Below the pieces are notes generated by a model. That model was not told where the DNA came from and made no database searches. It saw nothing but the letters and a program-made list of their open reading frames with translations. Shown here in pieces: positions 6,389 to 39,755 of a stretch of DNA of 64,000 bases. The stretch covers positions 3,575-67,574 of the forward strand of contig JACKGG010000004.1 of the NCBI GenBank assembly GCA_020632035.1. The letters run 5' to 3'. Every line of letters starts with the position of its first letter. Within the stretch, counting starts at the first letter, position 1. Origin of the DNA: Candidatus Nomurabacteria bacterium (GTDB taxonomy: Bacteria > Patescibacteriota > Minisyncoccia > Phycocordibacterales > UBA918). The translations under genes were made by a program, and so were the position numbers.

Positions 6389-7624
6389 TTAAAAGTATTC
6401 GTAGGTATCATATTGGTCTTTATTGTGGAAAAACTGGGCTGACAACAATAAAGCAGTGTCCGGAGGAACATTTTTCTGACTAGAGTTTTCGGTCTGGTCT
6501 TTGTAGCACAAATCTATAATTTTAGAAGAAATAGTAGTGATGATAGGTGAAGTTTTAAGGTTTCTTGTGACTGCCTTACCGATCAGGTCTGTGAACAAAG
6601 GTTCAGATTTAATGTCAGTGTGAAGCGAAATTCTCTTTGGAATAGATAAACTGTCTCCGGTTTCTTTAAATAACTCTGTGATCTTCTCTATGTAAGCTTC
6701 AAAAACTAACTCAACATCAACTTTTTGTTTTTCGTTTAAACTTGCCAAAAAAGCAAAAGGTTTTTCAGTATGTAAATAACCAAATGCCTCATGTAATGGA
6801 ATCTTGACTATTTGAGCGATTTCTCTTGCTAATGAAAATGAACCAAATGGTGTGTGTGTGCAATAAGTAAGAATTCCATCTCGTACAACGCCAATTTCTG
6901 TGGCTTCATAAGTAACATCTACTAGGCAGACATCGTAATTTTGGTTTAGAAGTTCTTTTGTCATCGTGTAAAGCATAAGAATAAAAGACAGTCTTCTGTT
7001 GTCAGCTTTAGCGAAAAGTTTGTCATGGATCTCATCCATGGCGTCTATTAGGTGTTGTTGGGCGACTGCTGTTCCTTGTGAAATTCCGAGGGTGTTAGAG
7101 CGGTTACCTTCTGGTTGGTTAATATGGTATCCGTTTGCAGTTAAATCCATAAGCAGTCTGGTAATAACCTTTAGACCAAGTGCACTTAATACCTCGTCTT
7201 GATTTATGTCATTCTTGATTTTGTCCCCGATCGCACTGTAGAGTTGAGCAATTAGTTCGTTGGTTATTTCAAAGTCATTCTCTTGAGTATAGTTAATAGA
7301 CTTGGTGATAGTGTAAGACCAAGGAGCAGAAATACCACATTGAAACTCGCCTAGCTCAGCCTTACTATCAAAATCGTACAGGTGCTTCCTCCCTTCTGCA
7401 TCTAGTTGCATAGAAGCATTGACCAGAGCGGTCATAATGGCTTTAGCACTTTGCTCCATAGAAGAAATATTTTTCAAAGGAACGTGCTCACGATGTGACC
7501 ATAGAATATCTGGGTGTAGTTTATTAGGGTCAGAATGCACGATAGAAGCTAAGACGCTCCCTGAGCCTATATCAATGATCACTCCGTAGCGAGTTTTTGC
7601 CTTGCTTAGGCCAAATAACGACAT
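6389..7624 (-). CDS. ASKHA-fold (actin/Hsp70/sugar-kinase superfamily) protein; Ppx/GppA- or FtsA/PilM-like, family unresolved
   Basis: N-terminal phosphate-1-like motif YGVIIDIGSGSVLASIV and a later DVCLVDVTYEATEIGVV (phosphate-2-like D-x-G/T-x-TE). 411 aa. The exact family cannot be decided by eye. Confidence 0.4.
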   Translation of the reverse strand: MSLFGLSKAKTRYGVIIDIGSGSVLASIVHSDPNKLHPDILWSHREHVPLKNISSMEQSAKAIMTALVNASMQLDAEGRKHLYDFDSKAELGEFQCGISAPWSYTITKSINYTQENDFEITNELIAQLYSAIGDKIKNDINQDEVLSALGLKVITRLLMDLTANGYHINQPEGNRSNTLGISQGTAVAQQHLIDAMDEIHDKLFAKADNRRLSFILMLYTMTKELLNQNYDVCLVDVTYEATEIGVVRDGILTYCTHTPFGSFSLAREIAQIVKIPLHEAFGYLHTEKPFAFLASLNEKQKVDVELVFEAYIEKITELFKETGDSLSIPKRISLHTDIKSEPLFTDLIGKAVTRNLKTSPIITTISSKIIDLCYKDQTENSSQKNVPPDTALLLSAQFFHNKDQYDTYEYF

Positions 7625-7688: not shown

Positions 7689-9629
7689 CTAGCTTTCAAG
7701 GACAGCCTTAATTCGCCGCACACCGGCAGAAGAAGATTCTTCCTTTTTAATCTTAAATGTACCACTAATGTTTTCCAGTGCTTCTACGTGGGGTCCTCCG
7801 CATAGCTCGCGCGAAAAAACTGTTCCGTCATTGCCTTTTACTGTGTAAACCTTTACTTCGTCAGGATAACGGTCCCAAAAACTGCCCTCCACAGTCGGAT
7901 CCTTCTCTGCTGTGTCCTTGCTCATCATGTCGATAGTAACCTTTCCTCCAGTTTGAATAGCTTTGTTTACCCAGGCTTCGATTTTGTCTAAAGTTTCCCG
8001 TTCGATTTTTTCAGGATGAGTGAAGTCAAAACGAAGGCGTTCCCCGGTGATATTTGAGCCAGCTTGGTGTACATGGTCTCCCAGAAAATGTCTAAGTGCA
8101 GCTAGAAGGAGGTGTGTACTAGTGTGATACTGAACCACTGTTTCAGAGTGATCAGCAAGTCCTCCTTTAAACTTTTGTTCAGCTCCTGCTCGAGACTTTT
8201 CTCGATGTTCCTCCATAAGCTTTTCAAAGCCGTCCTTGTCGACAATTAGTCCTTTCTCTTCAGCAATTTCTTCAGTTAACTCAATCGGAAAACCGTAAGT
8301 AGTAAATAAATCAAAGGCATTCTGAGCACTGATAGCTTTTTTTGTTACGGTTGATTCCTTGTCTAGAACTTTTTTACCGTCCACTATCTTGGTATTTACA
8401 TGAACCTGAAGTGAGATTTTATTAAACTGTTTGAGTCCATTTTCAAGTGTCTTGCGGAATTGCGCCTCTTCTTGAGTAATTGTTTGTTTTATTTCCTCCT
8501 CCTTATCCTTAAGATTTGTGTAATGTCCTTTGTAGGTTTGAATTACAGCTTCTGCGAGGTCAGAAAACATTCCCTCAGGAACTCCAATCATGTCAGCGTA
8601 GCGTACTGCTCTACGAAGTAGCCTCCGTACGAAATAACCTTGTTCAGTATTGCTTGGTAGTATGCCGTCTCCAATCATGAAAGTTGCTCCTCGAACATGA
8701 TCAGTCACAACTCTAAAAGCGACTAGATTATCTTCATATTTCTTTCCAGACAAGGTTTGGATTTTTTCAACCACATTCCAAAGTAAATCAACTTTAAACA
8801 TGTCATTCTCTTCTATTGCCGCTGCTGCGATACGCTCAAGACCTCCACCAAAATCAACGTTTTGCTTTGGTAGTTTTTCAAAGCCGTTTTCTGTCTTGAT
8901 GTATTCCATGAATACAGAATTCCCGATTTCAAGAAAACGTCCGCAGTCGCAGTTTGGGTGGCAGTGTTTACCAAACTTTGTGTCATGTGGAGTACCAAAA
9001 TCATAGAACACCTCACTATCAGGACCTCCTATTTCACCCACTGGCATGTTTTGAATCTTTCCAGCGCGCGTCCACCAGTTCTTACTTGCGTCGTAGTAAA
9101 AGATTCTTTCGCCTTCATTCATTCCCCTTTCACCACCCTCTTCTTCTGAGCCCATTTCAGCCACGCCAGCAGAGATACCTTTCTCAGTGAAGAGTTTCTT
9201 CCATATGTCTACAGCTTCTGTATCTTTGGGAACATTTGCTTTTTCGTCACCAATAAATGTTGTAACGTATATATTTTCTGGATTAAGTCCTACTTCGTCA
9301 GTCAAAAATGAATAGAACCAAGGAAGTTGTTCTTGTTTAAAATAGTCACCCAGTGACCAGTTTCCAAGCATTTCGAAAAAAGTAGTGTGTCGATTATCTC
9401 CCACTTCTTCTATGTCCTCAGCTCGAAAGCACTTCTGTGAGTCAGTTAGCTTGGTGCCCTTTGGGTGGGTTTCTCCCATCAGGTACGGTACAAGTGGCTG
9501 CATACCGCTACCGGTAAAAAGAGTCGTCGGGTCATTTTCTGGTACAAGAGCAGATGACGGAATAACAGCATGGCCGTTTTTGGCCATGAAATCTAGGTAT
9601 TTTTTACGAATGTCGTTGCCTTTGTTCAT
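7689..9629 (-). CDS. alaS: alanine--tRNA ligase, short form (catalytic, tRNA-recognition and editing domains; C-terminal C-Ala domain absent)
   Basis: N-terminus IRKKYLDFMAKNGHAVIPSSALVPENDPTTLFTGSGMQP matches AlaRS motif 1. An editing-domain HxxxH block is present (TSTHLLLAALRHFLGDHVHQAGS). Only 646 aa versus about 870 in typical bacteria. Confidence 0.9.
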   Translation of the reverse strand: MNKGNDIRKKYLDFMAKNGHAVIPSSALVPENDPTTLFTGSGMQPLVPYLMGETHPKGTKLTDSQKCFRAEDIEEVGDNRHTTFFEMLGNWSLGDYFKQEQLPWFYSFLTDEVGLNPENIYVTTFIGDEKANVPKDTEAVDIWKKLFTEKGISAGVAEMGSEEEGGERGMNEGERIFYYDASKNWWTRAGKIQNMPVGEIGGPDSEVFYDFGTPHDTKFGKHCHPNCDCGRFLEIGNSVFMEYIKTENGFEKLPKQNVDFGGGLERIAAAAIEENDMFKVDLLWNVVEKIQTLSGKKYEDNLVAFRVVTDHVRGATFMIGDGILPSNTEQGYFVRRLLRRAVRYADMIGVPEGMFSDLAEAVIQTYKGHYTNLKDKEEEIKQTITQEEAQFRKTLENGLKQFNKISLQVHVNTKIVDGKKVLDKESTVTKKAISAQNAFDLFTTYGFPIELTEEIAEEKGLIVDKDGFEKLMEEHREKSRAGAEQKFKGGLADHSETVVQYHTSTHLLLAALRHFLGDHVHQAGSNITGERLRFDFTHPEKIERETLDKIEAWVNKAIQTGGKVTIDMMSKDTAEKDPTVEGSFWDRYPDEVKVYTVKGNDGTVFSRELCGGPHVEALENISGTFKIKKEESSSAGVRRIKAVLES

Positions 9630-36527: not shown

Positions 36528-37040
36528 CTAGACTTTTTTCTTTGGTTTAAGTGAGGCCATAATACCGTTAACAATCCCTACTGCCAGTATTAGCCATGTT
36601 ATGTAGCTCATTAGAAATTCCCCAAAAGTGAAACCAGTTTGGCCCAGAATTTCAATGCCCGCTAAAGTACCAAGAGCATACCAACTTCCTGCTTGCAAAG
36701 CTGGTCCAAAAGTGCTCGGCATCAAGTGAGCAGTCATTAGCATAGAGTTAATAAATAATATAAGGATTACGAATAGCTCACTCCAAGTAAAGCCCGAGAG
36801 ATGTTCCAACCCTGAAACGCTTCCTTCTAAAGCAGTCAATACTACAGTGGTAACCAGAATTAACACCATTGCTACTCTTAGTACCTTATACACGACACCC
36901 ATCATTCGCCTCTCTGTTTCATCTATCTTGCCGTCGGCTATGGCAACAAAGAAGTTCACAATGGCTAAGGTAGAAGAACCAACCCCAAGTGAAACACTAA
37001 TAGTTTGTAAAATTGTCACTACTGTAATTAATATTGTCAT
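36528..37040 (-). CDS. polytopic membrane protein, hypothetical
   Basis: 170 aa with about five hydrophobic helices. Confidence 0.45.
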   Translation of the reverse strand: MTILITVVTILQTISVSLGVGSSTLAIVNFFVAIADGKIDETERRMMGVVYKVLRVAMVLILVTTVVLTALEGSVSGLEHLSGFTWSELFVILILFINSMLMTAHLMPSTFGPALQAGSWYALGTLAGIEILGQTGFTFGEFLMSYITWLILAVGIVNGIMASLKPKKKV

Positions 37041-37125
37041 ATAGTAAATAATAGCAAATAAAACGAAGAAGATAAGAAGAGTTGTGAATTTACATATAAC
37101 AACATACAGTTTATGCTGTTAGGCA

Positions 37126-37824
37126 ATGAAAAAATACAAACACTTATTTTTTGATATGGATCAAACAGTTGCTCCAGCAAGACAGCCTATTTTGTCTGAA
37201 ATGTACGAACTGCTTGATTCACTTCCACACGATATCATTATTGTTTCTGGACAAGAGGTAGACAAAATACTGTGGCAAAGCAATAACCTGCCTGCCTACA
37301 CATTAGGTCAAAACGGAAATCACGCTAAAGATTTACAACGTGAAGAAATCTGGAATATTCCACTAGATGAAGCTCACCGTCAAGAAATACTTGCACACAT
37401 AGAAGCTATAACAAAAATTCTCGACCACGAATTAAATCATGATTGGAATCCAATAGAAGACAGGGGTGCGCAGATTACTTTTAGCCCTATCGGAAACACA
37501 GCCCCAGTTGAACACAAAAAATCATACGACCCCGACAGAAAAAAGCGCGAATTTCTAATGCAACAAGTTCCGTTCGAATCAAAGGAACTAGTGGTTAAAA
37601 TTGGTGGCTCTACCAGCCTAGACTATATTCATAAAGACAGACATAAAGGAACAAATGTACAAAAACTTATAGACCATATGGGATGGAACAAAGAAGAATG
37701 TATTTACTTTGGCGATGGACTTTACCCGGGAGGTAATGACGAAGCTGTAATCGGTGTTATCGAAACAGTACCGGTTGACGACCATAACGATACATACAAG
37801 AAGCTTCAAGAAATGCTTGGATAA
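37126..37824 (+). CDS. HAD-superfamily hydrolase, subfamily IIB-like (phosphomannomutase/sugar-phosphatase-like)
   Basis: Motif I FFDMDQTV (DxDxT). Motif III/IV KIGGSTSLD...YFGDGLYPGGNDEAV. 232 aa. Confidence 0.65.
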   Translation: MKKYKHLFFDMDQTVAPARQPILSEMYELLDSLPHDIIIVSGQEVDKILWQSNNLPAYTLGQNGNHAKDLQREEIWNIPLDEAHRQEILAHIEAITKILDHELNHDWNPIEDRGAQITFSPIGNTAPVEHKKSYDPDRKKREFLMQQVPFESKELVVKIGGSTSLDYIHKDRHKGTNVQKLIDHMGWNKEECIYFGDGLYPGGNDEAVIGVIETVPVDDHNDTYKKLQEMLG

Positions 37825-37839
37825 ATTAATCATCCAAAA

Positions 37840-37870
37840 CAAAAACAGCACTTAGTGCTGTTTTGTTTTA
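37840..37870. terminator. bidirectional intrinsic terminator (CAGCAC-TTAG-GTGCTG flanked by an A-run and TTTTGTTTT)
   Basis: Lies downstream of the HAD gene on the plus strand and downstream of tRNA-Ala(GGC) on the minus strand. Confidence 0.55.
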
Positions 37871-37873
37871 TAG

Positions 37874-37946
37874 TGGACTCTAGCGGACTTGAACCGCTCG
37901 CCTCTTCCATGCCATGGAAGCGCTCTACCGGATGAGCTAAGAGCCC
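37874..37946 (-). tRNA. tRNA-Ala (anticodon GGC), 73 nt, CCA not encoded
   Basis: The reverse complement folds into a cloverleaf. Acceptor stem GGGCTCT/AGAGTCC includes the G3:U70 AlaRS identity pair. D stem GCTC/GAGC. Anticodon stem CTTCC/GGAAG with loop ATGGCAT. T stem AGCGG/CCGCT with loop TTCAAGT. Discriminator A. Confidence 0.75.
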
Positions 37947-37967
37947 GGTGATCGAGATTTTAGCATA

Positions 37968-37998
37968 AAGAAAAACAGCGCGCATGTGCTGTTTTTCT
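37968..37998. terminator. A-run/hairpin/T-run element (CAGCGC-GCAT-GTGCTG) with the same flanks (aaaaac...ttttcttaatgtgg) as the terminator inside each 201-bp unit
   Basis: agaaaaacagcgcgcatgtgctgtttttcttaatgtgg immediately precedes (in plus coordinates) the first tRNA 3'-end copy. Confidence 0.45.
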
Positions 37999-38006
37999 TA
38001 ATGTGG

Positions 38007-38408
38007 TGGACTCGACAGGACTTGGTCACCTTCGTTAAGTACTTTATTCGCTAACGCTCAAAAGATACTAAACTACGCGACCCCGCCGTTCACATCGTCC
38101 TCACTTCGTTCCGGGCGATATGTTCACTCTTTTCAAGTCCTGACGAAAGCTAACGCTTTCTTCTCGTCCACACATAACAAAAACCGCTCACGCGGTTTTC
38201 TTATGTGTGGACTCGACAGGACTTGGTCACCTTCGTTAAGTACTTTATTCGCTAACGCTCAAAAGATACTAAACTACGCGACCCCGCCGTTCACATCGTC
38301 CTCACTTCGTTCCGGGCGATATGTTCACTCTTTTCAAGTCCTGACGAAAGCTAACGCTTTCTTCTCGTCCACACATAACAAAAACCGCTCACGCGGTTTT
38401 CTTATGTG
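38007..38408. repeat. two perfectly identical 201-bp tandem units, each carrying a copy of the tRNA-Ala(UGC) T-loop/3' end and an A-run/hairpin/T-run terminator (ACCGC-TCAC-GCGGT); followed by a degenerate third copy at 38409..38477
   Basis: Positions 38007-38207 and 38208-38408 read identically by eye. In minus-strand orientation each unit ends ...CAAGT-CCTGT-CGAGTCC-A followed by CCA (unit 1, 38004-38006) or CAC (unit 2). This is the exact complement of the 5' acceptor strand GGGCTCG of the truncated tRNA at 38478..38537. The third copy ends CCTGTCCA (a 7-nt deletion removes the acceptor strand). Confidence 0.85.
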
Positions 38409-38477
38409 GACAGGATTCACCTTCGTCAGTACCTTCGTTAAAGATACTTTTCAACTACGCGATCGCTAACGCCTTCA

Positions 38478-38537
38478 ACTTGAACCCGCTACCTCCTCAG
38501 TGCAAATGAGGCGCTCTACCAGATGAGCTACGAGCCC
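38478..38537 (-). tRNA. tRNA-Ala (anticodon UGC), nucleotides 1-60 only (5' acceptor strand through T-loop); the matching 3' segment is displaced into the tandem repeats, so this is a probable disrupted gene
   Basis: Reverse complement: GGGCTCG-TA-GCTC-ATCTGGTA-GAGC-G-CCTCA-TTTGCAC-TGAGG-AGGTA-GCGGG-TTCAAGT. After that the sequence diverges (TGAAGGCG...) instead of giving the 3' T-stem strand. Valid 3' partners (CCTGT-CGAGTCC-A, with two G:U pairs in the T stem and G3:U70) occur at 38008..38024 and 38209..38225. Confidence 0.55.
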
Positions 38538-38569
38538 AGAATAAATTCTTGTGGGCAATTTTAAACTTT

Positions 38570-38648
38570 CCACTTCTCATTTGTCATGTGCAAATGGTTC
38601 AATTGTCTCCGAGACAATCTTACCCCTATCAGATGAGCCACGAGCTAA
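38570..38648 (-). pseudogene. decayed tRNA-Ala-like remnant
   Basis: The reverse complement contains TAGCTCGTGGCTCATCTGATAGGGG (compare GGGCTCGTAGCTCATCTGGTAGAGC of the neighbouring tRNA) and CATTTGCAC (anticodon-loop sequence with TGC). These are interrupted by a perfect 8-bp hairpin ATTGTCTC-GGA-GACAAT, and there is no T arm. Confidence 0.3.
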
Positions 38649-38792
38649 ACCAGGAAAATTAAAATTTATTTTTATTTACTCCGAGTGTAGGGCTAGAAAG
38701 CTTTGCTTACGAGCCCTTTGTTTTTGACTTCTATTATGAAGTGCGGACATAATAATAGCCAAAGGCTTTAAAGTCAAGGTAATTTATAAGTT

Positions 38793-39755
38793 TTATACTG
38801 TTGCTGTTTCAACTAAGTGGCTAATCAAATCTGAGAAATTGATACCAACTGATGACGCTGCTTTAGGAAAGTTTGAATGTGGTGTAAGACCTGGTAAAGT
38901 ATTGATTTCAAGGAAATATACATCTCCATCTTTGACAATAAAATCACTTCTTGAGTACTGATCACAGCCTATTTCCTTGTGGACAGTCGCCGCCGCTTCT
39001 GACAGTAGGGCTTTTTCGTGATAAGAAAACCGGCCAGGGCATAGAAGCTTTGTTGTTCCGTTGTACTTATTTTCGTTTGAATAAAAGGTATCAGACCTAG
39101 GAGGGACGATTTCAATCACAGGTAGAGGGTACATTTCCATATTGCGGAAGTTATTTAAGATTCCTACAGTTGCTTCTTTTCCTCTTATGTACTCCTCAAC
39201 CATTACATGTTCATACATTTCTAGTAGCTCTGTTAAAGCAGTTTTTAAAGTTTCTTCAGTTGGTGTGTACCTAGCCCCGATTGATGAACCTCCAAGTATT
39301 GGTTTCACGAACAACTCACTTCCGACTTCAGAAAATATAAGTTTGATCTCTTCATCTAGAGTATCAATTTCTGCTCGACTGACTCTTCTATGTCGAGGCA
39401 TTTTTAAACCAATTGATCGTAAAGTTTGTTTAGTCAGTTCTTTATTAAAAGCGATCGCTGAGGGCATGGCTCGACTACCAGTAAATGGGACGTTTTTGCG
39501 CTGTAGGATACGTTGTACTTGCCCGTCTTCACCGTATGCGCCATGGAGAGCCAAGAAAACAACATCTGTGGTGTCTAATAGTGTTTCTGGATCCTTCACA
39601 AAGCCATCGTGTAGCCACTCTCCTTTACGGCTTACGACAATGTCTTTGGTTATATAATCAAGACCTCTCATGACCTCAAGAACAGCCTGTCCGGTACGCA
39701 TGGAGACATCGTATTCTTGGCTTGGGCCACCTCTAAGTACCGCTACTCTTTTCAT
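38793..39755 (-). CDS. ddl: D-alanine--D-alanine ligase
   Basis: N-terminus MKRVAVLRGGPSQEYDVSMRTGQAVLEV. ATP-grasp fold. 320 aa. Confidence 0.85.
   Translation of the reverse strand: MKRVAVLRGGPSQEYDVSMRTGQAVLEVMRGLDYITKDIVVSRKGEWLHDGFVKDPETLLDTTDVVFLALHGAYGEDGQVQRILQRKNVPFTGSRAMPSAIAFNKELTKQTLRSIGLKMPRHRRVSRAEIDTLDEEIKLIFSEVGSELFVKPILGGSSIGARYTPTEETLKTALTELLEMYEHVMVEEYIRGKEATVGILNNFRNMEMYPLPVIEIVPPRSDTFYSNENKYNGTTKLLCPGRFSYHEKALLSEAAATVHKEIGCDQYSRSDFIVKDGDVYFLEINTLPGLTPHSNFPKAASSVGINFSDLISHLVETATV

Follow-up and report, generated by a model that had tools for sequence, protein, structure and literature searches.

The tRNA-like domain of transfer-messenger RNA (tmRNA), the bacterial Y RNA-like YrlA, the stable 'species 1/2' RNAs of phage T4 and the eukaryotic mascRNA of MALAT1 have ends that pair as an acceptor-stem-like helix and leave the discriminator base unpaired. 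These tRNA-like RNAs are encoded beside or within transfer RNA (tRNA) transcription units, and RNase P and the CCA-adding enzyme may plausibly act on them. 3'ETS-leuZ of E. coli is a small RNA (sRNA) from a tRNA 3' trailer, depends on the tRNA promoter and is freed by tRNA-processing nucleases. Tandem paralogous sRNA genes are represented by LhrC1-5, PrrF1/2 and OmrA/B, each gene with its own promoter and terminator. On the DNA level, tRNA 3' ends are classic integration sites. Here we describe two tandem units of 201 bp at positions 38007-38408 of a 64,000-nt stretch of contig JACKGG010000004.1 (assembly GCA_020632035.1, Candidatus Nomurabacteria bacterium); this whole stretch is called the window. 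Each unit makes up one cassette, a predicted 163-nt structured non-coding RNA (ncRNA) gene on the minus strand and a terminator-like hairpin. By sequence comparison, the family is found in a clade of Paceibacteria-like Patescibacteria, where it forms tandem arrays of variable make-up immediately behind tRNA-Ala(UGC). With moderate confidence we regard the units as structured ncRNA cassettes linked to tRNA-Ala(UGC): they would share the transcript of the tRNA, tRNA-processing enzymes would probably trim them, and recombination at a core made of the tRNA end would rearrange them. The family is apparently undescribed so far: full-text literature searches found no description of such units, and the sole related paper treats group I introns in tRNAs of Patescibacteria.

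The duplicated units and their predicted fold

A self-comparison of the window showed 38007-38207 and 38208-38408 to be identical base for base, with a perfect register over 38006-38408. Tandem Repeats Finder gave a period of 201 with 2.1 copies and a repeat search also scored the pair at 100 %, which bears out the two identical tandem units described in an earlier note on this DNA. Within the 64-kb window, neither BLAST with the 201-bp unit, a step proposed there, nor the covariance model described below detected a further copy. The view that the region is otherwise unique was mistaken: the minus strand has, immediately upstream of the units, a truncated tRNA-Ala(UGC), a third, partial unit that is degenerate, and a fragment of a pseudo-tRNA. 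Read on this strand, the 201-bp period consists of a terminator-like hairpin (AAAACCGC-GUGA-GCGGUUUUU, its stem lengthened by the flanks) and 163 nt that terminate in CAAGUCCUGUCGAGUCCA. The hairpin, an A-run/ACCGC-GUGA-GCGGU/U-run element, scored as terminator-like on both strands, so the bidirectional terminator assumed for each unit was found. Intrinsic terminators were predicted with stems at 38401-38380 and 38200-38179 on the minus strand and 38180-38199 on the plus strand, each of 8-9 pairs, four of them G-C, followed by a T-run. The copy between the partial unit and unit 2 spans 38367..38413, with a stem prolonged into the flanking GUCCA/UGGAC, and the copy between units 2 and 1 spans 38166..38212 with 17-nt arms that are 94 % complementary. 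A third hairpin with a different stem had also been reported; repeat search and sequence reading located it after unit 1 at 37964..38003 (both strands).

The 18-nt tail of the unit comprises part of the T-loop, the 3' strands of T-stem and acceptor stem and A73 of a tRNA. A tRNA 3'-end copy is indeed present, as the earlier note had stated, but it is no mimic: it is the exact 3' end of the relatives' tRNA-Ala(UGC) (100 %). The adjacent tRNA-Ala(GGC) agrees at only 15 of 18 positions and was the wrong source; the UGC gene, truncated in the window, is the right one. Intact tRNA-Ala(UGC) genes whose 3' end CAAGUCCUGUCGAGUCCA equals the unit tail were present just downstream of the Ddl gene in the related contigs (L numbers) L124, L126, L127, L129-L131 and L151. 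The window gene, at 38478..38537 on the minus strand, holds only positions 1-60, namely the acceptor 5' strand, D arm, anticodon arm, T-stem 5' strand and T-loop; after the break at position 60/61 the 3' strands of T-stem and acceptor are missing. It was matched by the Rfam tRNA model with 35.2 bits under omission of the T arm and received no ARAGORN call; with the intact genes of L124 and L126 it shares 98.5 % identity as far as the last T-loop nucleotide and diverges thereafter. No intact tRNA-Ala(UGC) is present in the 64-kb window, and if the genome has no second copy, the decoding of GCA and GCG codons would be unexplained. Recombination apparently cut off the gene's own 3' end. In a more extreme form of the RNA cassette reading, the truncated tRNA might be completed by the 3' end of a downstream unit and so be a split tRNA, which would then carry a G3·U70 acceptor and a GCGGG/CCUGU T stem.

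The earlier note had seen no tRNA-like 5' half in the unit. This was wrong: the window unit starts with GGACGAG-AA-[GAAAGC GUUA GCUUUC]-GU-CAGGACUUG, in which GGACGAG...CAGGACUUG complements the tRNA 3' end, and the units of the relatives open with GGACUCG...CAGGACUUG, the exact complement of CAAGUCCUG-U-CGAGUCC. The 5' end being the complement of the tail, the two ends are expected to pair into an acceptor-like clamp. Folding, another step proposed in the note, agreed: the minimum-energy fold of every unit joins the 5' and 3' ends, with z-scores of -2 to -8. The predicted clamp consists of an acceptor-like helix P1 of 7-8 bp, followed by the unpaired A73 and stacked on P2 (8-9 bp), with the hairpin P1a at the junction. 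It encloses a multi-branched body that always includes a hairpin bearing a GA/GAA internal loop. For unit 1 (38007..38169, minus strand), the folds, the consensus structure and the pair counts place the P1 5' strand at 38169-38162, P1a at 38160-38145, the P2 5' strand at 38142-38134, the GA-hairpin at 38069-38038 and the tRNA-derived P2/P1 3' strand at 38024-38008, with A73 at 38007 (all minus strand). The identical unit 2 lies at 38208..38370 (minus strand).

Evidence for a structured RNA was obtained from the relatives. A covariance model, R1, was built from four units of the window's sequence type (type I). It matched unit 1 and, over the full length, unit 2 with 167.7 bits each, and found every unit type except the short unit of L140, in full-length hits of 22-195 bits; within 196 kb of related sequence, these hits occurred on the tRNA strand only and at these loci only. 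In the R1-based alignment of 19 distinct sequences from one clade, 93.6 % of the cells were paired and 36 of 58 pairs showed compensatory changes on both sides. None of 500 shuffles reached the observed pairing, and structures slid by 1-3 columns gave 32-43 % paired. Hand-anchored, ungapped sub-alignments were also prepared, in which variable hairpin tips were swapped for constant filler and the arms alone were compared. In these, P1a was 100 % paired with compensatory changes in three of six pairs, one position presenting A-U, C-G, G-C and U-A. The GA-hairpin stem, 5'-stem-GA-G...C-GAA-stem-3' and present in every unit type, was 95 % paired with four of five pairs compensated. Among the pairs, 59 were G·U or U·G and 11 were A·C or C·A, and one P4 pair was G·U in 14 of 16 sequences. 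Since such pairs would be mismatched in the opposite strand and equally in a DNA cruciform, the G·U excess points to the tRNA strand. In all 14 units this strand had the lower folding energy of the two, and the GAG...CGAA motif has a constant orientation. Without the tRNA-derived ends, the type I body of the window is 74-82 % identical to those of L127, L130 and L134, genomes in which the adjacent Ddl has 55-66 % protein identity and 36-37 % identity at third codon positions. Covariation, G·U excess, strand specificity and conservation together support the suggestion of a small structured RNA with acceptor-like ends, possibly a substrate of RNase P and the CCA-adding enzyme. A coding function of an 88-aa open reading frame (ORF) on the plus strand (38203-38469) was rejected: homologous units differ by 1-nt indels, tblastn frames switch and no 3-base periodicity is present. 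Rfam left the units unmatched in the window region, at gathering thresholds as well as at E <= 10, and in seven related loci at E <= 0.5; the families covered include tmRNA, T-box, group I intron, signal recognition particle RNA, 6S and Y RNA.

Variable arrays in related genomes and layout of the locus

Syntenic contigs (L124, L126, L140, L141, L151 and others) were gathered via homologues of the neighbouring HAD protein; L127-L134 came from metagenomes searched for a 21-nt unit pattern. A loose, gapped 17-nt pattern yielded chance matches only in the genome contigs and was discarded; the lone contig with two matches, L019, contains a repeated protein domain. Behind tRNA-Ala(UGC) and its hairpin, the syntenic Paceibacteria-like contigs carry from zero to at least four units of several sequence types in shuffled order. 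In L130 and L129 these are type I, a short type II, type III and a fused type I' (order I-II-III-I' in L130). L127 has I' then I, L131 only I', L126 another type (A) followed by III, and L151, L155 and L157 only III; one 250-nt type is present in L124, three further variants in L128 and no unit in L146-L149. Unit lengths across the loci range from 105 to 274 nt. Direct copies of the tRNA 3' end occur solely downstream of the tRNA, never upstream.

In the more distant L140 and L141, tRNA-Ala(UGC) has another T arm and acceptor, GGGGG-UUCGAAU-CCUCU-CGGGUCC-A (UUCGAAUCCUCUCGGGUCCA), and the units there correspond to their own tRNA in the 3' copy, in the 5' complement or in both; on both of its strands, the clamp thus follows the tRNA next to it. 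L140 also contains a perfectly duplicated unit plus hairpin (154 bp x 2.1, 100 %), the repeat beginning within the tRNA 3' end. This independent, comparable duplication, bounded by the tRNA-end core, supports the very recent duplication proposed in the earlier note; judged from their sequence, the two 201-bp units are a very recent duplication of one family member, and the finding is more than a local slippage event. In L141 (5190-5440, minus strand), tRNA-Ala(GGC) and its hairpin are followed by a 31-nt mini-unit, GGACCGUAG-GAAACAGUUCCG-CUAUGGUCCA. It is an acceptor minihelix made from the 3' end of this tRNA-Ala(GGC) itself, thus the phenomenon is not confined to the UGC isoacceptor. A block of about 750 bp is present twice in L134 (200-1210, plus strand) and holds a type I unit and, on the opposite strand, an ORF of 84 aa of unknown family; each block is bounded by AGTCCACC cores and, from its sequence, looks like a gene-carrying cassette in the array. 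In L130 (6880-7010, plus strand), a type III unit is fused to the following type I'-like unit by a deletion at the common CAGGAC motif, and the fused unit is truncated in its own 3' part; decay therefore appears to be ongoing in the arrays. Decayed 3' ends were also seen in L141 and in the third unit of L128 (u3). A variable island between the HAD gene and tRNA-Ala/Ddl, downstream of tRNA-Ala(UGC), was observed in L139, L144, L146 and L151; its contents include a type I restriction enzyme with methyltransferase, DUF2130 with DNA glycosylase and DUF1294, a rhodanese and queuosine synthesis genes.

On the minus strand of the window, the order is promoter, leader, truncated tRNA-Ala(UGC), partial unit, hairpin, unit 2, hairpin, unit 1, hairpin and tRNA-Ala(GGC). 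The putative sigma-70-type promoter, TTGACT-17-TATTAT at 38749..38777 (minus strand, 10 of 12 matches), lies upstream of the tRNA-Ala(UGC) leader and is the only good promoter match for the block of tRNA and units; the promoter scan found none between units. Sequence reading revealed a TTGACT...TAT(T/C)AT motif at the equivalent site of L124, L126, L140, L146 and L151. A second promoter-like site, ATGACA-18-TAAAAT at 38587-38558, overlaps the pseudo-tRNA fragment. The leader contains a conserved hairpin, GGGCUCGUAAGCAAAGCUUUCUAGCCC, at 38690..38716 (minus strand, sequence reading), which recurs in L151, L155 and L157 and, as a variant with apparently compensated changes, in L141 (L151 at about 8160-8190, L141 at about 6440-6470, both minus strand). 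Its first 9 nt are the same as in the tRNA, and it may be a separate leader or processing element. A degenerate 5' fragment of a pseudo-tRNA-Ala (AGCUCGUGGCUCAUCUGAUAGGGG...CAUUUGCACAUGA) occupies 38576..38646 of the leader (minus strand), where 38626-38645 is 90 % identical to 38516-38535 of the tRNA; it is missing from the leaders of the relatives and, from its sequence, is read as a further relic of rearrangement at the locus. Fused to the tRNA T-loop is the degenerate, scrambled partial unit of 71 nt (38407..38477, minus strand), which has GCGUUAGCGA, UCGCGUAGUU, AGUAUCUUU and ACGAAGGUGA as motifs in common with the unit and ends in a decayed core, UCCUGUCCA. It had no stable fold (z = +0.3) and was not matched by model R1. 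At the other end, the intact tRNA-Ala(GGC) at 37873..37946 (minus strand) is followed by its own bidirectional terminator at 37842-37864. The eight ORFs scanned around the units include bacterial housekeeping genes as the flanking genes: HlyD/AcrB efflux genes, a HAD-IIB hydrolase gene at 37126-37824 (plus strand) and the Ddl gene at 38793-39755 (minus strand), then a UDP-glucose dehydrogenase-like gene, UvrC and UvrA. The HAD protein has homologues named Candidatus Pacebacteria, Nomurabacteria, Kaiserbacteria and Parcubacteria, by which the window is assigned to a chromosome of the Patescibacteria (Candidate Phyla Radiation). A 20-bp tandem repeat (2.2 copies, 80 % matches) lies at 37008-37053, in the divergent intergenic region that separates an ORF of 170 aa from the HAD gene.

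Proposed explanation and its alternatives

If the units are RNA cassettes, they would be transcribed with the tRNA from the one conserved upstream promoter, by reading through leaky hairpins. The clamp, an acceptor-like helix of 7-8 bp on P2 with A73, may serve as substrate for RNase P, for 3' trimming and for the CCA-adding enzyme, and the excised stable RNAs could present the GA-hairpin to a partner. The 18-24-nt tRNA-end core, repeated after every cassette, would be a recombination substrate: unequal crossing-over at the core may have generated the perfect 2 x 201-bp duplication, and recombination of an unequal or ectopic kind could account for the unit fusions in L130, for the decay of the ends in L141 and L128 and for the loss of the tRNA 3' end in the window.

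Several observations weigh against this explanation. The model-fitted alignment favours structure and G·U pairs and inflates the counts somewhat, and the data set comprises about 19 distinct sequences from one clade. The z-scores are similar on both strands, none being better on the tRNA strand, and P1 of the window units is weakened by two mismatches (GGACGAG versus CGAGUCC). When tRNA, hairpin and unit are folded together, the thermodynamic optimum is an extended hairpin of 40-45 bp instead of the clamp in cis; in it, the 5' strand of the unit pairs with the 3' end of the preceding tRNA or unit, which is also a long palindrome in the DNA. By this folding the clamp may not be the biologically relevant structure, and the extended hairpin might serve as an RNase III site, terminate transcription more strongly or be the recombinogenic feature. 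A good hairpin of the intrinsic-terminator kind precedes every cassette, and the cassettes have no promoter of their own, which argues against efficient transcription. Finally, the high conservation in comparison with the flanks, the shuffled order and the presence or absence of units fit a mobile cassette equally well.

The last point leads to an explanation on the DNA level, to which we attach a tentative, rather low probability. On this view, the units would be non-autonomous recombination cassettes comparable with integron attC sites, cis-mobilizable elements (CIMEs) or integrative mobile elements exploiting Xer (IMEX), and their inverted tRNA-end arms would fold into a site for recombination. 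Excision and re-insertion at the tRNA end would be the work of a recombinase whose gene lies elsewhere, or of RecA at the 18-24-bp core, and would give rise to accretion arrays, shuffling and duplications; the conserved hairpins would then be single-stranded DNA or protein-binding features and not functional RNA. The arrays accord with this in many respects: order and content differ among close relatives (L130, L127, L126, L151 and L146, see above), the bounding cores are identical and found only 3' of the tRNA, perfect duplications arose in two lineages (window and L140), and fused and truncated units exist. Further, the 750-bp block of unit and small ORF in L134 is repeated between cores, the interval from tRNA to HAD gene is a variable island in relatives, tRNA end, hairpin and inverted copy form a near-palindrome of 40-45 bp, and the units are much more conserved than their flanks. 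However, a scan of ten ORFs next to the L134 and L127 arrays gave no match to a recombinase family (six of the ORFs had no family match at all), and the same holds for the eight ORFs scanned in the window, where the nearest genes are housekeeping genes. Dispersed copies are absent from the 64-kb window and from 196 kb of related loci. In the other strand or in duplex DNA, the conserved G·U pair and the pairs behind the 5:1 excess of G·U over A·C would be mismatched. A GA/GAA loop that is conserved, non-Watson-Crick and always oriented alike is a typical trait of RNA motifs. Between type I copies the divergence is 15-26 %, with compensatory changes, and this suggests a long vertical descent more than a recent transfer. 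The miniature mobile or recombinogenic element envisaged in the earlier note retains some probability, as the arrays behave like shuffled cassettes; it is weakened by the lack of dispersed copies and of a recombinase in the ORFs checked beside two related arrays.

Both principles are combined in an integron-like array for ncRNAs, a proposal we judge unlikely: the tRNA gene would be a fixed entry site and the tRNA 3' end a universal cassette boundary for interchangeable structured RNAs, which recombination at the tRNA-end core would excise, re-insert and duplicate and which tRNA processing would release from the tRNA transcript.

An assembly artefact is quite unlikely. In this case the genome would have one unit, or another number than two, the second copy would stem from an error in repeat resolution, and the truncated tRNA could originate from the same mis-join. 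The identity of 100 % over 201 bp and the many short repeats of the locus, which confuse assemblers, speak for an error, and a genome without intact tRNA-Ala(UGC) would be a surprise. No independent contig spans the repeat: in short-read assemblies (L001-L003, L135-L138), contigs of the same species with an identical Ddl end 21-30 nt into tRNA-Ala(UGC), and those with an identical 170-aa neighbour protein end inside the HAD gene, breaks that suggest repeats or strain heterogeneity across 37.1-38.5 kb. But short-read assemblers usually collapse perfect tandem repeats and do not expand them, and the unrelated 478-kb JGI contig L140 has a comparable perfect duplication with core-bounded junctions. 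The junctions in the window are in register with the core and with the diverged third partial copy, as predicted by unequal crossing-over. Even with a wrong copy number, unit and family stay real.

That the units are functionless, decayed scars of a phage or island inserted in the 3' end of tRNA-Ala(UGC) and later deleted, leaving arm region and attR, is highly improbable: the use of tRNA 3' ends by integrating elements, the direct repeats of the tRNA end solely downstream as in attL/attR pairs, the variable gene content after arrays in relatives and the degenerate copies (38407-38477 in the window, decayed 3' ends of L141 and L128 u3) would fit, but 105-274 nt of conserved structured sequence lie between the direct repeats and no integrase or element genes, an architecture common to all types with 36 compensated pairs and a universal GA-hairpin is not expected of scars, nor is 74-82 % identity beside Ddl coding sequence that is saturated at third codon positions, and the inverted tRNA-end complement at the 5' side is left unexplained. 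A phage or viral origin was rejected, as blastn against INPHARED matched tRNA genes only and a scan of IMG/VR viral contigs for the conserved 21-nt 3'-end pattern gave no exact match.

If the RNA cassettes preferred by us are expressed, they constitute an apparently undescribed structured-RNA family in the Candidate Phyla Radiation. Genomes of about 1 Mb have little spare DNA, yet some give up to about 1 kb to such arrays. The tRNA 3' end would double as structural clamp and recombination core and so tie RNA processing to genome plasticity. For annotation, the apparent destruction of tRNA-Ala(UGC) by recombination at this locus means that the tRNA complements of such genomes need checking. Model R1 offers a means of mapping the distribution of the family and of searching for proteins that co-occur with it.

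Comparison with known systems

Several known identities were considered and did not fit. Neither ARAGORN nor the Rfam tRNA model matched the units as tRNA, even at E <= 10, and no tmRNA was reported by ARAGORN or Rfam. The candidate tag frame of the window, followed by sequence reading of type I, ends at a stop codon that the relatives lack, hence no tag frame is conserved. The acceptor end of the window unit (G1-C72, G2-C71, A3-U70 and two further mismatches) does not conform to a minihelix for alanyl-tRNA synthetase. Among ten units compared, position 3:70 was A3-U70 in nine and G3·U70 in one (L151); sequence reading possibly adds the L140 unit to the latter. With A3-U70 in place of G3·U70, charging with alanine is unlikely for most units, and this function as well as a link to the neighbouring Ddl as a cell-wall tRNA was rejected for them. 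Group I introns have been described at position 35/36 of Patescibacteria tRNAs (bioRxiv 10.1101/2025.07.03.662931). The tRNA of the window is instead interrupted at 60/61 by a sequence with terminator-like hairpins, and no Intron_gpI match was obtained on either strand of 37700-38900 at E <= 10. Inverted termini as in miniature inverted-repeat transposable elements or repetitive extragenic palindromes are present, but no copy was found elsewhere in the 64 kb or at non-tRNA sites in 196 kb. Two RNA motifs were also discarded: GAG...CGAA(A) resembles domain 2 of the hammerhead ribozyme, but the CUGA core is absent by eye, and in the GA-hairpin the 5 nt before GA are paired and covarying and the 3' strand has an extra A, unlike a kink turn.

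Integron cassettes and CIME arrays resemble the units in the variable tandem array at a fixed site, the repeated core, the shuffled order and the duplications. With attC sites the units further share imperfect inverted repeats around a variable centre, with structure kept more than sequence. They differ in the lack of an ORF (L134 being a possible exception), in the absence of recombinase families from the eight window ORFs and the ten ORFs beside the L134 and L127 arrays, and in their tRNA-derived arms, no attC-like GTTRRRY core being present in the unit sequences read. In contrast to integron and CIME arrays, the strand-specific G·U pairs indicate selection on RNA. Like LhrC1-5, PrrF1/2 and OmrA/B, the units are related genes arranged head to tail with a terminator after each and a variable copy number; unlike these, they have tRNA-derived clamped ends and no promoter-like site between them. 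As with 3'ETS-leuZ, they are non-coding and lie in a tRNA 3' trailer, and promoter dependence and release by nucleases would apply to both; the units are larger (105-274 nt), highly structured, organised in multi-copy arrays and bounded by a copy of the tRNA end and a terminator-like hairpin of their own. The tRNA-like domain of tmRNA, YrlA, T4 species 1/2 and mascRNA have in common with them the paired ends, the unpaired discriminator, the position beside a tRNA and, by the predicted fold, plausible suitability for RNase P and the CCA-adding enzyme. The units lack, however, a T arm, as their T-loop and T-stem nucleotides pair with the distal 5' strand, and have no D-loop/T-loop elbow; with mostly A3-U70, no conserved tag frame and no match by ARAGORN or Rfam, they stand apart from these tRNA-like RNAs.

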